Positions 8,195 to 57,290 are shown, counted from the first letter of the whole stretch. The stretch: DNA of 63,918 nucleotides, filler included, from Octopus bimaculoides (GCF_001194135.2; 5 parts of 5 records of this genome joined end to end with filler, not necessarily neighbours in it), one strand, 5' to 3'. Translations and numbers: made by a program. Notes: generated by a model not told the origin, from the sequence alone.

Positions 8195-8376
8195 CGGTAC
8201 CATTTTCCTCTTTCTCCGTTCTTCCATTCTCCGAACTTTCCATCTTTCCGACGAAGGGCTACGCCCGAAACGTCATACACTCTCTCTTTCCTTTCCTGAG
8301 CGTCCAATAATACTATCCATATCACGTCCTCACTTTGTTGTTTTTTTGTTTTTTTGTTATTGTGTTTTTGAACTAT
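8195..8376 (+). mobile_element. Penelope-like terminal-repeat remnant, family P1, with a degenerate hammerhead motif
   Basis: Homologous to 36930-37160 (shared CTTTCCTTTCCTGAGCGTCCAATA); contains CCGACGA-A-GGGC-TAC-GCCC-GAAA-CG-TC. Confidence 0.6.
8243..8278 (+). ncRNA. Degenerate minimal type-I hammerhead ribozyme motif (U4C, weak stem I)
   Basis: Core CCGACGA 8248-8254, stem II GGGC/GCCC, GAAA 8267-8270, GTC triplet. Confidence 0.45.
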
Positions 8377-9139
8377 ANNNNNNNNNNNNNNNNNNNNNNN
8401 NNNNNNNNNNNNNNNNNNNNNNNNNNNNNNNNNNNNNNNNNNNNNNNNNNNNNNNNNNNNNNNNNNNNNNNNNNNNNNNNNNNNNNNNNNNNNNNNNNNN
8501 NNNNNNNNNNNNNNNNNNNNNNNNNNNNNNNNNNNNNNNNNNNNNNNNNNNNNNNNNNNNNNNNNNNNNNNNNNNNNNNNNNNNNNNNNNNNNNNNNNNN
8601 NNNNNNNNNNNNNNNNNNNNNNNNNNNNNNNNNNNNNNNNNNNNNNNNNNNNNNNNNNNNNNNNNNNNNNNNNNNNNNNNNNNNNNNNNNNNNNNNNNNN
8701 NNNNNNNNNNNNNNNNNNNNNNNNNNNNNNNNNNNNNNNNNNNNNNNNNNNNNNNNNNNNNNNNNNNNNNNNNNNNNNNNNNNNNNNNNNNNNNNNNNNN
8801 NNNNNNNNNNNNNNNNNNNNNNNNNNNNNNNNNNNNNNNNNNNNNNNNNNNNNNNNNNNNNNNNNNNNNNNNNNNNNNNNNNNNNNNNNNNNNNNNNNNN
8901 NNNNNNNNNNNNNNNNNNNNNNNNNNNNNNNNNNNNNNNNNNNNNNNNNNNNNNNNNNNNNNNNNNNNNNNNNNNNNNNNNNNNNNNNNNNNNNNNNNNN
9001 NNNNNNNNNNNNNNNNNNNNNNNNNNNNNNNNNNNNNNNNNNNNNNNNNNNNNNAAATAATGACTGAAACAAGTAAAAGAATAAAGGAATAAAAGAATAC
9101 ATATATAAATACATATATGCCAATCTTTTGGTAAAAGTC

Positions 9140-9236
9140 TATGACGTCATGAATGAGTGTGTGACATGGTATTTTATCTGCTCGACGGGGCTGAACAGTC
9201 AAACACACTCGCATTCATCCACAACTGACGTCATAT
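9140..9236. repeat. Imperfect ~95-bp inverted repeat whose two ends are TGACGTCA palindromes
   Basis: TGAATGAGTGTGTGAC pairs with GTCAAACACACTCGCATTCA; TGACGTCA at 9142-9149 and 9226-9233. Confidence 0.7.
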
Positions 9237-9737
9237 ACAAATACCGAAGCATTGCCATATATAAATGTATATACCTATATCTATATATTTACAGCTATCT
9301 ATCTATCTATCTATCTATCTATCTATCTATCTATCTATCTATCTATCTATCTATCTATTTCTGTCTCTGTGTCTGTCTTTCTCCTCCCTCTCTCTGTATA
9401 AAAAATCCAAAAAAAATCAACGAGGCCCATAAAACGTACATATCAACGATGAAGCCTCTGAATAATCGTTCGACTTGTTAGAAATAACAGCCAAATCTTT
9501 GTAAGAAAAAAACAAAATAAAAACATGAACCAAAAAGACCAGAACGACACATTAGATAATCTAGATAACCTCCACCCTTTCTATAAAAGAAAAAAAAAGA
9601 TTAAGACGGAGTAACATCTAGAATTCGTTTGATCATAGGTTTACTCGATCAGTAGTGTCCTGTGGCTAAACAACAACAACAAGGCGTAAACAACGCCATA
9701 TACTTCAGCATACCCAGAATGCTTTGCAAAAGTTGTT

Positions 9738-9745
9738 TGACGTCA
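9738..9745. promoter_or_regulatory. Full CRE (CREB/ATF) palindrome TGACGTCA, the third within ~600 bp
   Basis: Exact consensus match; function unproven. Confidence 0.3.
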
Positions 9746-9977
9746 CAACACGAAGGTTGTGTCAGATTACGATCGGCAGTTTCCTCCGAATACTTCCTTG
9801 TTTGTTTTTCTTTATTTATCTATCACCACCACCACCACCACCAGCTCGACCACCATCAAAACCTCTACCACTAACACAAACGTTAACAATAAAACAACAA
9901 AAAACTCCATCATCACCACCACCACCAATACGCCAGCAGTAGCACTGTTATGAACAACCACAGCAACCGACGCTGCT

Positions 9978-10140
9978 ACCACCACCACCACCACCACATT
10001 TACTACTACTACTACCACTACTACTACTACCACCACTACTACTACTACCACCACCACCACCACCACTACTACCACCACCACCACTACTACCACCACCACC
10101 ACTACTACCACCACCACCACTACTACTACTACTACTACCG
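9978..10140. repeat. (CAC)n/(TAC)n trinucleotide repeat
   Basis: Directly visible; explains the poly-V/H/Y ORFs. Confidence 0.95.
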
Positions 10141-54195: not shown

Positions 54196-54204
54196 ACTGG
54201 TAAT

Positions 54205-54345
54205 GGGATCCTTTGGGGCAGAGGTCACTGATGGATTTTGTTATCATCTCGGACCTCTTTGGTTCTGTGCTGGACATTCGTGTAAAGAGAGGCGCCGACC
54301 TTTCAACGAATCACCACTCAGCTGCTTGCAACCCGAGACTACTTA
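54205..54345 (+). pseudogene. LINE AP-endonuclease C-terminal remnant of a different RTE-type lineage (Expander/Rex3-like)
   Basis: GQRSLMDFVIISDLFGSVLDIRVKRGADLSTNHH resembles the recalled motif GxRSMIDFVVVSSDL...VLDTRVKRGAELSTDHH. Confidence 0.7.
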
Positions 54346-55681
54346 CAGCAGGGAGAATTCACAAAACTGCGACGTCCATTTACGGAGTGTNNNNNNNNNN
54401 NNNNNNNNNNNNNNNNNNNNNNNNNNNNNNNNNNNNNNNNNNNNNNNNNNNNNNNNNNNNNNNNNNNNNNNNNNNNNNNNNNNNNNNNNNNNNNNNNNNN
54501 NNNNNNNNNNNNNNNNNNNNNNNNNNNNNNNNNNNNNNNNNNNNNNNNNNNNNNNNNNNNNNNNNNNNNNNNNNNNNNNNNNNNNNNNNNNNNNNNNNNN
54601 NNNNNNNNNNNNNNNNNNNNNNNNNNNNNNNNNNNNNNNNNNNNNNNNNNNNNNNNNNNNNNNNNNNNNNNNNNNNNNNNNNNNNNNNNNNNNNNNNNNN
54701 NNNNNNNNNNNNNNNNNNNNNNNNNNNNNNNNNNNNNNNNNNNNNNNNNNNNNNNNNNNNNNNNNNNNNNNNNNNNNNNNNNNNNNNNNNNNNNNNNNNN
54801 NNNNNNNNNNNNNNNNNNNNNNNNNNNNNNNNNNNNNNNNNNNNNNNNNNNNNNNNNNNNNNNNNNNNNNNNNNNNNNNNNNNNNNNNNNNNNNNNNNNN
54901 NNNNNNNNNNNNNNNNNNNNNNNNNNNNNNNNNNNNNNNNNNNNNNNNNNNNNNNNNNNNNNNNNNNNNNNNNNNNNNNNNNNNNNNNNNNNNNNNNNNN
55001 NNNNNNNNNNNNNNNNNNNNNNNNNNNNNNNNNNNNNNNNNNNNNNNNNNNNNNNNNNNNNNNNNNNNNNNNNNNNNNNNNNNNNNNNNNNNNNNNNNNN
55101 NNNNNNNNNNNNNNNNNNNNNNNNNNNNNNNNNNNNNNNNNNNNNNNNNNNNNNNNNNNNNNNNNNNNNNNNNNNNNNNNNNNNNNNNNNNNNNNNNNNN
55201 NNNNNNNNNCCCCTACCCCCCGAAACTCTCCCCTACCCCCCGAAACTCCCGGTTGCAATCCACCCTCCCCATTCCACGCTCCCTAAACGACCCTTCCCGC
55301 CCATACTCAGGGCCCTTAATCTAGCTAAGTACTTTAAGCAATCATAGACACTTGATGTTGTGTCCATCTGGTTCGTGTTATAGAAAGAGGGGGAGGAAAG
55401 GGGTTCGGTTCCGATGGGTAACAACATTGGCGAAGGGTTTGGTTGCAGCGCTGGGGATGAAGGTAGGGGTTGAACCACTGCCTGCTTTGGTGATGCGTGT
55501 AAATAGGGGGACTGTAATGGCGCGCGTGCGCACACACACACATGCACACACAAACAAAGAAACCATCCAGGAGAGAAAGGTAGATGAGAGGAAACCGTGG
55601 TAGACATAGCAACACAAACATATATTCATATATGTGCATACCTTAACTTATGGAAGGATACATACAGGTGCATGTTTAGGC

Positions 55682-55900
55682 ACAGGTGTGGCTGTGTGGT
55701 AAGAAGTTTGCTTCCCAAACACATGGTTCTGGGTTCAGTCCCACTGTGTGAGTGTTTGTGTGTGTGTGTGTAGGTGTGTTTGTGTTTATGCCTCTTTGTT
55801 CCCCACCACCGCTTGACAACAGAGACTGGTGTATTTAAGTTCCCGTAACTTAGCGGTTCAGCAAAGGAGACTGATAGAATATTATCAGGCTTTAACAGAA
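55682..55900 (+). mobile_element. SINE family A with an internal deletion
   Basis: Family A head joined to the 3' half. Confidence 0.8.
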
Positions 55901-57099
55901 TTGTACTGTAGATATCTTAAATATAACAGTTAAAGACGGGCGAAATACCGCTTAGCATTTTGTCCGGCACAATAACGATTCCTTCAGCTTGCTGCCTTGA
56001 AGCGCGTAAATATAAAGAAGACAAAATGTGAGTTCCTTGTTGGATTCGAACCGATGACTTCTTTGTTGATAATACGACGTTTGTTGAACAAAATCCAATT
56101 GTCAACGTAATACCCACTCCCACTCCCACCTCACCACCAATGCTTTGAATAACTGTATTAAACATGAGCCATAGGAGTGAGTCTAACTGTGATATTGATT
56201 CTTTCAATTCCTGAATGTTGAGATCAGCGGTTACCCCACCCGGGGTCCGAAAACCATGGGGAGGCATCCACAGAGATAGACTTCGGAGTCCTTAAACTGT
56301 ATTTAACAATCTAATAGGCTGCAGTGTAAAATATATAATTATTTAATTATATATTATTATTCAGTTACATATATATTTCAGATGAGAGATGAAACAAGGA
56401 AAATGAGATTGTAGTTAGTTAATAAAATCGGCTTATGGAGTAGACACATTTCTAAAAAGTCTGTGGACCGTGGGAAAATTCATTTAAATAAAAAGAAGTC
56501 CTTGATCGTGAAAATGTTAGGAATTAATAGTTTAGACTGCGCAAATTATTTCAATGTGCATTTTTAAATACAGTTGATATTTTCTACTGAATGCAGTTCC
56601 CTTATTTATCCGGTTACATACATAAAAAATACAGACCTCGCTTAAATGGAAATATTTAATTTATTTGAATTTATATTTATTAATATTAACTGAAAAAAAA
56701 AAATGAATATTCCACTAATTACGTCCCACTAAGCTGTTAATAATAGCCATTTCTTATCGCCTCTGTTACTTTTTATGAAATTATGAAATCATGAAACAAC
56801 GTCGCCAACAGCTAGTTCCAGAATCTGGAAATTATAACATCATTAAGTACGAAATCATGAATATCTGCCAAAAAGTGAAACCAGTGATATACATGAATAT
56901 TATGTTTCGTACATAAAGTTTCATCATAAAGATTTCAATGTGTTTCCATCCCTGCTTTCAATTTGGGAGGAAAAACAAAAGAAATTACTACTCACCCAAT
57001 TTGATTGAAGTTATATGTAACAATTTCACTCAGTTCCACATTTTTTAATGTTTCGTGGGCGAGTCAGTTTGTTATAATATATTTCATCATATTGAACCG

Positions 57100-57290
57100 T
57101 TATTCCCGACACAATTTTTTCTTTCTCCGTTTTTCCGTTCTCTCTCTGTTTTTTCCCCTCTCAATTCTTTCTGTCGAAGAGCGAAGGCTCGAAACGTCAA
57201 AGACTTTTCCATTGTTCCCAAGCGTCAAACTAATACACCGGTTTGTTGTTCCCTGTTCCCTCACCTGTCATCGTCTTCTGTTTTATGTAC
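57100..57290 (+). mobile_element. Penelope-like terminal-repeat remnant, family P3
   Basis: Homologous to 47560-47758. Confidence 0.6.
57166..57203 (+). ncRNA. Variant minimal type-I hammerhead motif (CUGUCGA core), all stems intact
   Basis: TCTTT-CTGTCGA-A-GAGC-GAAG-GCTC-GAAA-CG-TC-AAAGA: 5-bp stem I, 4-bp stem II with tetraloop, palindromic ACGT stem III, GUC triplet. Confidence 0.65.

Follow-up and report, generated by a model that had tools for sequence, protein, structure and literature searches.

The stretch of DNA considered here, which we call the window, comprises 63,918 nt of Octopus bimaculoides sequence (GCF_001194135.2; five parts of five records joined end to end with filler) and is AT-rich animal DNA with numerous microsatellites, dispersed repeats and 9,350 N. 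Distributed over it are short elements that carry hammerhead ribozyme motifs. A first-pass annotation, made from the sequence alone, had listed ten such motifs of type I and attributed them to Penelope-like retroelements. All ten are present, but the list missed an eleventh (E; C3 at 37320, minus strand) and two motifs with a rearranged block order (N1 and N2; C3 at 558 and 36573, both minus strand). Judging from RNA layout and insertion anatomy, it is likely that the ten motifs and E are type-I hammerheads lying in what are probably 5'-truncated 3' ends of at least five Penelope-like families, most of them decayed, and that N1 and N2 are rearranged hammerheads of probable Naiad origin, predicted to self-cleave as single molecules.

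Ten type-I motifs and an eleventh

The type-I order holds in all ten motifs, and self-comparison of the window sorts them into five families of two copies each (A1, A2, B, C and D), in agreement with the roughly five families first proposed. Together with E they are, with their core positions C3 and H17:

8243..8279, plus strand: A1a, a decayed minimal type-I motif (C3 8248, H17 8274; U4C, stem I of 1 bp); the element spans about 8170-8373, with a gap 103 nt past H17
21327..21372, minus strand: B1, an intact minimal type-I motif (C3 21367, H17 21332; stem I 5 bp, stem II 6 bp, loop-less ACGU stem III, H17 a U)
33910..33955, plus strand: B2, the second copy of family B (C3 33915, H17 33950; U4C), 88% identical to B1 over 179 nt
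37026..37060, plus strand: A1b, strongly decayed (C3 37030; G12A, G17), with (TA)n 100 nt past position 17
37242..37323, minus strand: E, the eleventh type-I motif (C3 37320, H17 37245; U4A in this copy, long stem II, 8-nt palindromic stem III)
37490..38251, both strands: C1 and C2, a head-to-head foldback of family C (C1: C3 37635, minus strand, H17 37568, core intact, stem II base unpaired; C2: C3 38107, plus strand, H17 38174, U16.1C)
38280..38582, both strands: D1 and D2, a head-to-head foldback of family D (D1: C3 38433, minus strand, H17 38382; D2: C3 38526, plus strand, H17 38577; both with intact core, Hydra-type stem III and an extra base before G12; the right arm meets a gap)
47659..47694, plus strand: A2a, minimal type-I (C3 47663, H17 47690; A6U, 15.2-16.2 pair broken)
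57166..57203, plus strand: A2b, minimal type-I (C3 57171, H17 57198; all stems intact, A6U), with a microsatellite 100 nt past H17

The core is intact in B1, C1, D1 and D2 and damaged in the remaining six motifs, each with one or two of the lesions given above (U4C in A1a and B2, A6U in both A2 copies, U16.1 lost in C2, positions 12 and 17 changed in A1b). Stem I has 4-5 bp in nine motifs and only 1 bp in A1a. An extra base between A9 and G10.1, accompanied by a G10.1-C11.1 pair, is found in six of the ten (families A and B), while C and D differ. The 15.2-16.2 pair and loop III form the palindrome ACGU in A1a, B1, B2 and A2b. The short, loop-less or palindromic stem III described in the first-pass annotation thus holds for A and B, with their loop-less ACGU, and for C, an 8-nt palindrome once majority letters are restored; D instead has a 4-bp stem with a 1-nt loop. 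Both copies of A2, just 75% alike overall, have U at position 6, and so the master of this family probably carried A6U. In E, letters from other copies restore both U4 (at 37319, 100% of depth) and the palindrome (at 37250, 76%). A possible inverted piece of the family B 3' tail lies upstream of B2 at 33700-33745 (minus strand); its overlap with B1 is short and the alignment weak.

A descriptor search of the kind first proposed was run on the window, with shuffled sequence giving the chance rate. The strict descriptor matched one of the ten with zero core mismatches (B1, its sole such match) and three with at most one, compared to 0.0 and 0.1 per window over 30 shuffles. The relaxed descriptor recovered seven of the ten plus one extra match at 1616, compared with 0.46 on average and 4 at most in 300 shuffles, and its zero-defect matches numbered 3 as against 0.003 per shuffle. 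The ten-motif set is therefore far beyond chance. Relaxed descriptors do yield 0.46 type-I matches and, for the block order of N1 and N2 (type SGC), 0.085 matches per shuffled window. Nevertheless, the idea that the motifs are chance matches in AT-rich repeat DNA is scarcely credible in view of the zero-defect excess, the full permuted layout found twice as against 0.0055 per shuffle (see below) and the repair of motifs by family majority letters; it is already contradicted for B, C, D and E. Two isolated matches, at 1616 and 14647 (both minus strand), occur at about the chance rate and are probably chance. CUGAUGA words at 7139 (minus), 7208 (plus), 7540 (minus), 5783 (plus) and 31412 (minus) were rejected, as no descriptor gave a hammerhead fold; the first three lie in a nested foldback at 7020-7603 (related copy 5582-5804), within another repeat. 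Rfam gave no hammerhead family among the matches listed (150 of 182 for the window, and all for three stretches).

Permuted motifs and the 3' ends of Naiads

The two remaining motifs have the same layout with other letters:

546..668, minus strand: N1, a non-circularly permuted hammerhead candidate (H17 604, G12 587, C3 558)
36558..36690, minus strand: N2, the second permuted candidate (H17 36617, G12 36601, C3 36573)

Read 5' to 3', each consists of helix Q, hairpin R, a stem II strand, helix P, a stem III strand, UH, a stem I strand and a linker of 4-6 nt, followed by the other stem II strand, GAAA, stem III, P, stem I, CUGAUGA and Q. The cores are intact, in the order site-GAAA-CUGAUGA, which is non-circular and pseudoknotted. 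In N1 the helices are Q 668-663/551-546 (6/6 pairs), R 662-629 (15/15), stem II 628-624/592-588 (4/5), P 622-617/571-566 (6/6), stem III 609-605/584-580 (5/5) and stem I 603-599/563-559 (5/5), with a 6-nt linker. In N2 they are Q 36690-36683/36566-36558 (8 pairs, one bulge), R 36682-36648 (4/4), stem II 36640-36635/36607-36602 (6/6), P 36634-36626/36588-36580 (8/9), stem III 36621-36618/36598-36595 (3/4) and stem I 36616-36612/36578-36574 (5/5), with a 4-nt linker. We propose that Q, R, P and stem III would form a nested scaffold and that the loop of stem III would fold back onto the two single strands flanking P. Stems I and II would arise from this back-pairing as two pseudoknots, and the core would be rebuilt in its permuted order, interrupted by Q and R between A9 and G10.1. 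The element would then have a monomeric ribozyme close to its 3' end, where such ribozymes usually lie.

A scan over all six hammerhead block orders, requiring intact cores, returned N1, N2, B1 and one match of order GCS at 14647, with 0.085 SGC matches per shuffle (200 shuffles). A descriptor for the full permuted layout found N1 and N2 only, compared to 11 matches in 2,000 shuffles (0.0055 per shuffle). Nested folding, whose model excludes pseudoknots, supports Q in both motifs (mean pair probability 0.96 in N1 and 0.72 in N2), R and P in N1, and stem I in N2. Next to CUGAUGA there is also a weak alternative, direct stem II of 4 bp in N1 and 3 bp in N2, with wobbles. Natural hammerheads with a stem II of 1-2 bp are known, as is an A6C change of low activity (PMC3088659; published work is cited throughout from its accessible parts), so that both this weak stem II and the A6U of family A2 may be compatible with activity. 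When metagenome contigs were scanned for the N2 pattern, 17 loci were obtained and rejected by eye as chance matches in microbe-like DNA (stem II/III pairing was not script-checked); a scan of viral contigs for the nematode permuted form described next gave none.

Naiads have been reported to lack canonical hammerheads, some being marked 'HHR_core' or 'HHR_half_core', and the authors read this lack as pointing to a ribozyme that is either dispensable to these elements or parasitic on them (Craig et al. 2021, PMC8557442). We inspected by eye the last 250-350 nt of 53 of the 54 Naiad consensus sequences of that study (PMC8557442 File S5; Naiad_Cmel was left out). Fourteen of the 53 ends carry non-circularly permuted hammerheads, with letters that differ in every helix. 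Six of these, all from nematodes (Naiads 1-3_Nbra, Hcon, Hpol and Asuum), end in complete type-CSG hammerheads: the core is intact, stem I has 4-6 bp, stem II 4-5 bp and stem III 6-10 bp, the other strands are joined by a stem of 9-13 bp, and the letters vary between families. They also observe the rule that no more than 1-2 bases separate CUGAnGA from stem II (Eckert et al. 2023, PMC10085705), and type-CSG has been shown to cleave in vitro. The other eight have the layout of N1 and N2 (Naiad_Obim, Ovul, Amil, Aacu, Anas, Bfor, 2_Movir and 3_Chem) and represent five independent lineages; stem I of Bfor has just 2 bp, and Aacu has one mismatch in each of stems I and II. The stem I letters of N2 are those of Naiad_Obim and Ovul. 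The nematode form and the N1/N2 form share one cyclic order and differ in the positions of their ends and in the Q-R insertion between A9 and G10.1. Left out of the count were the spider Naiad_Ptep (only stems I and III, in permuted order, without a clear stem II), three ostracod Naiads (with a stem-closed C block only) and the ambiguous Naiad_Esco. Bivalve and hemichordate Naiad ends share a different structured tail with no hammerhead core.

Several observations weigh against reading N1, N2 and the Naiad ends as ribozymes. The full-layout descriptor was composed after both motifs had been seen, which leaves 0.085 SGC matches per shuffle, from the six-order scan, as the unbiased figure. Nested folding favours neither stem II nor stem III in either motif, nor P in N2, pseudoknots being beyond it. 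N2 has a mismatch at 15.2-16.2, neither motif matches any of the Naiad consensus words tested, and both break the 1-2-base rule, which only the weak alternative stem II obeys. Lastly, the Naiad readings were made by eye, and 39 of the 53 ends, including all 11 from bivalves, gave no clear permuted hammerhead over the 250-350 nt inspected, five of them being partial. N1 and N2 could be structured 3' tails with a non-catalytic role, for example in binding reverse transcriptase, their hammerhead words being vestigial or forming the weak direct stem II only. No tested precedent was found for an insertion of Q and R between A9 and G10.1, hammerhead cleavage is dispensable for in vitro insertion of an anole element (PMC11167929), and Naiad_Bfor has its 2-bp stem I. 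We nonetheless find this account rather doubtful, because five distant lineages keep CUGANGA, GAAA and UH whole and aligned with three covarying helices, and because the same cyclic order occurs, free of any insertion, in the nematode form.

We lean instead towards the view that Naiads kept the hammerhead, many of them as a monomeric, non-circularly permuted form at the 3' end: type-CSG in nematodes, and in ctenophore, cnidarian and octopus Naiads, as in N1 and N2, a topology opened between A9 and G10.1. Within this proposal the nematode form has the higher odds and the insertion form the lower, since the latter breaks the 1-2-base rule. Naiads would then have rearranged their ribozyme instead of losing it. 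In literature searches, with most subscription journals outside their reach, we found no paper linking Naiads to permuted hammerheads.

Insertion anatomy, other copies and RNA

The Penelope-like origin put forward in the first-pass annotation gains support from the extra base after A9, the loop-less palindromic stem III, the Hydra-type stem III, the inverted head-to-head pairs and the (TA)n-adjacent 3' ends. The first microsatellite or gap falls 55-110 nt after H17 in seven of the ten motifs and in E (two of the seven are gaps beside TA runs), compared to 7.9% of random positions. The distances run from 58 to 103 nt, and (TA)n follows C2, D1 and E. In the anole Poseidon element, reverse transcription begins about 85-92 nt after the cut site, and the hammerhead needs protein (PMC11167929). 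The arms of foldback C are identical at 361 of 432 positions and those of D show 3 differences in 92 nt; an inverted, 5'-truncated arrangement has been described for Penelope-like elements (PMC8557442). We propose that the element's reverse transcriptase-endonuclease would nick AT-rich DNA, reverse-transcribe from a point about 60-100 nt downstream of where the hammerhead cuts, stop early and sometimes add an inverted second stub.

Dimeric cleavage, as first envisaged, is unlikely for the copies seen here: they include no tandem, both close pairs are in inverted orientation and six of the ten cores are damaged. Self-comparison of the window found no head-to-tail tandems, the copies being dispersed or inverted only. 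The C and D foldbacks are predicted to form long duplexes, and a single transcript through either pair would hold one sense and one antisense motif, and therefore no cis dimer. Whereas a master copy would cleave as a dimer or with the help of protein, the solo or inverted copies would not. It is very probable that the ten are decayed 3' stubs of Penelope-like masters that would cleave in this way, the genomic copies themselves being likely inert. As a class the ten are known (Cervera 2014, Craig 2021).

Seven hammerhead-bearing ends (N2, A1b, E, C1, C2, D1 and D2), from five families, lie within 2.1 kb at 36250-38582 and are joined at (TA)n runs. This region is an insertion hot spot. Contigs from DNA runs of two organisms (6,274 and 4,844 contigs) were placed on 37190-38480; majority letters were drawn from the 40 listed of 260 difference rows, and the summed word depth is no copy number. 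Variation among these many copies repairs damaged positions in C, D and E. In C, the stem III palindrome earlier inferred from the two arms reappears with the letter carried by the majority at 37572 (94% of depth); in D, the majority letter at 38396 (99%) brings back C11.1. Some contigs continue from family C through 37393-37497, so the 3' extension of C1 may be longer than that of C2.

The motifs had also been taken for short, ORF-less (open reading frame-less), non-autonomous families. No ORF was found near them, but the term non-autonomous is unsupported. On family C, contig depth drops from 111,535 close to the 3' end (37542-37585) to 1,734 at 37762-37805, about 200 nt further upstream in the element, a gradient more in keeping with ordinary 5' truncation than with a short element whose ends are fixed. 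On D, a subfamily that differs in loop II may lie behind the drop in depth (loose ends at 38394). The competing proposal is that these are dedicated families, resembling retrozymes or SINEs (short interspersed nuclear elements), with fixed ends of their own and mobilised in trans by Penelope proteins. It would account for the elements all being short and ORF-less, for the two B copies starting at the same point beside a trinucleotide run and for the extreme depth of the D-related 3' segment (up to 1.6 million summed word depth), and the literature derives animal retrozymes from pLTRs (pseudo-long terminal repeats). Yet the depth on C is graded and the arm lengths are unequal, the tandem units that define retrozymes are missing, and inverted 5'-truncated copies are typical of autonomous elements; we consider the proposal unlikely.

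Autonomous partners were sought in the window and none could be tied to any family. A Pfam search of 194 window peptides (192 of the 213 listed plus two others) gave no reverse transcriptase or GIY-YIG domain, only a mariner helix-turn-helix being above the cut-off. Protein searches with flanking peptides found no relatives for two peptides upstream of C and no match for one upstream of N1, a negative that carries little weight where the DNA is decayed. A Naiad would encode an N-terminal GIY-YIG domain, a CxC motif and a C-terminal reverse transcriptase; at N2 there is only about 200 nt of upstream element. As no reverse transcriptase or GIY-YIG domain was found next to any motif, the Penelope link draws on RNA layout and insertion anatomy and the assignment to clades on RNA layout only, and this too counts against our overall interpretation. 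The same applies, to a small degree, to RNA. Two runs, unstranded and covering about 6% of each, placed 994 and 922 reads on 37190-38480, and no reads piled up at the predicted cut sites of C, D and E, where the first-pass annotation would have had RNA ends; with this sampling the result says little. One pile-up, of 6 molecules, lies at 37552, 16 nt from the C1 cut site. A search of sequencing runs listed no RNA run among those with matching sequence. Most placed reads are less than 95% identical and 87-88% continue into unlike sequence, pointing to other copies as their source. The presence of family-like reads in the RNA runs, and the long duplexes that the C and D foldbacks would form, might suggest that some copies are kept by the host as ribozymes or as sources of hairpin RNA. 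Given the six damaged cores and reads that appear to be products of other copies, we think this very improbable.

Other repeats surround the motifs. A remnant of a mariner (Mos1-type) transposase helix-turn-helix (PF17906, E 1.8e-10) lies at 11345-11542 on the minus strand, and a young repeat of about 400 nt, 91-93% identical and with no hammerhead motif, occurs at 16656-17028, 30361-30771 and 62490-62890. An abundant SINE-like family, which we presume to resemble octopus SINEs, is found at 7748-8181, 12132-12548, 29602-30048, 34734-35158, 44882-45167, 61271-61467 and elsewhere, with 34766-35158 forming a head-to-head inverted pair.

Implications and comparison with known hammerheads

Non-circular hammerhead permutations have until now been known only outside animal genomes, according to the accessible text of Eckert et al. 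(2023, PMC10085705). If our interpretation is true, N1, N2 and the Naiad ends would be the first permuted hammerheads in animal genomes and would add a new natural connectivity. Animal genomes would then commonly hold non-circular RNA permutations, which would no longer count as a rarity of metatranscriptomes, and the known range of hammerhead folds would come to include a core broken between A9 and G10.1. Should Naiads have retained a rearranged, monomeric hammerhead in the usual 3' position, self-cleavage would be a more general requirement of Penelope-like elements; the permuted motifs bear on the dispensability or parasitism proposed by Craig et al. (2021).

Families A and B resemble the minimal hammerheads that lie in the pLTRs of metazoan Penelope-like elements encoding reverse transcriptase and GIY-YIG (PMC4209133) in being of type I, with a 4-5-bp stem I, an extra base after A9, a G10.1-C11.1 pair and a palindromic loop-less stem III, and in occurring mostly as solo copies or as opposite-strand pairs 100-700 bp apart. 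They differ in that the window has no ORF or pLTR tandem, and the accessible text of that source makes no mention of the A6U seen in both A2 copies. C, D and E are closer to the Hydra clade (Hydra-1_Obim, Hydra-2_Amil and Penelope-1_NV; PMC8557442 File S2), which has a 4-bp stem III with a 0-3-nt loop, a (TA)n target and often an extra base before GAA. In C and D stem III likewise has 4 bp, with a loop of 0-1 nt, and an additional base precedes G12. The stem III letters of D are those of Hydra-2_aMil and Penelope-16_HM, and D has the same core and next four bases as Hydra-1_Obim. By contrast, stem II in C, D and E is much longer (32-57 nt between core words), no ORF was found with them in the window, and none belongs to the Hydra-1_Obim family. 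Two earlier ideas were dropped on the strength of the Hydra-clade table: that C, D and E are Naiad half-cores, since the Hydra-type entries fit them, and that the extra base before G12 is a new variant, since it is common there. Non-LTR retrozymes (bioRxiv 10.64898/2026.07.22.740005) are likewise non-coding, carry type-I hammerheads and are related to the pLTRs of Penelope-like elements, but are defined as head-to-tail tandems, of which the window has none.

The 'HHR_core' and 'HHR_half_core' notes of Craig et al. (2021) also refer to core words near the 3' end, 35-50 nt apart on either side, and flag several of the same families. The accessible notes give no fold, whereas we read the same words as putative complete permuted hammerheads. 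Closest to N1 and N2 are the type-SGC and type-CSG hammerheads of Eckert et al. (2023), with which they share a non-circular block order, all core bases, pseudoknotted stems, a short linker that connects one strand of stem I to one of stem II, and an extra stem joining the other two strands. They differ in having the conserved stem II strand upstream, and helix Q and hairpin R between A9 and G10.1. N1 and N2 would thus work like type-SGC and type-CSG hammerheads, yet we do not class them as members of either type.

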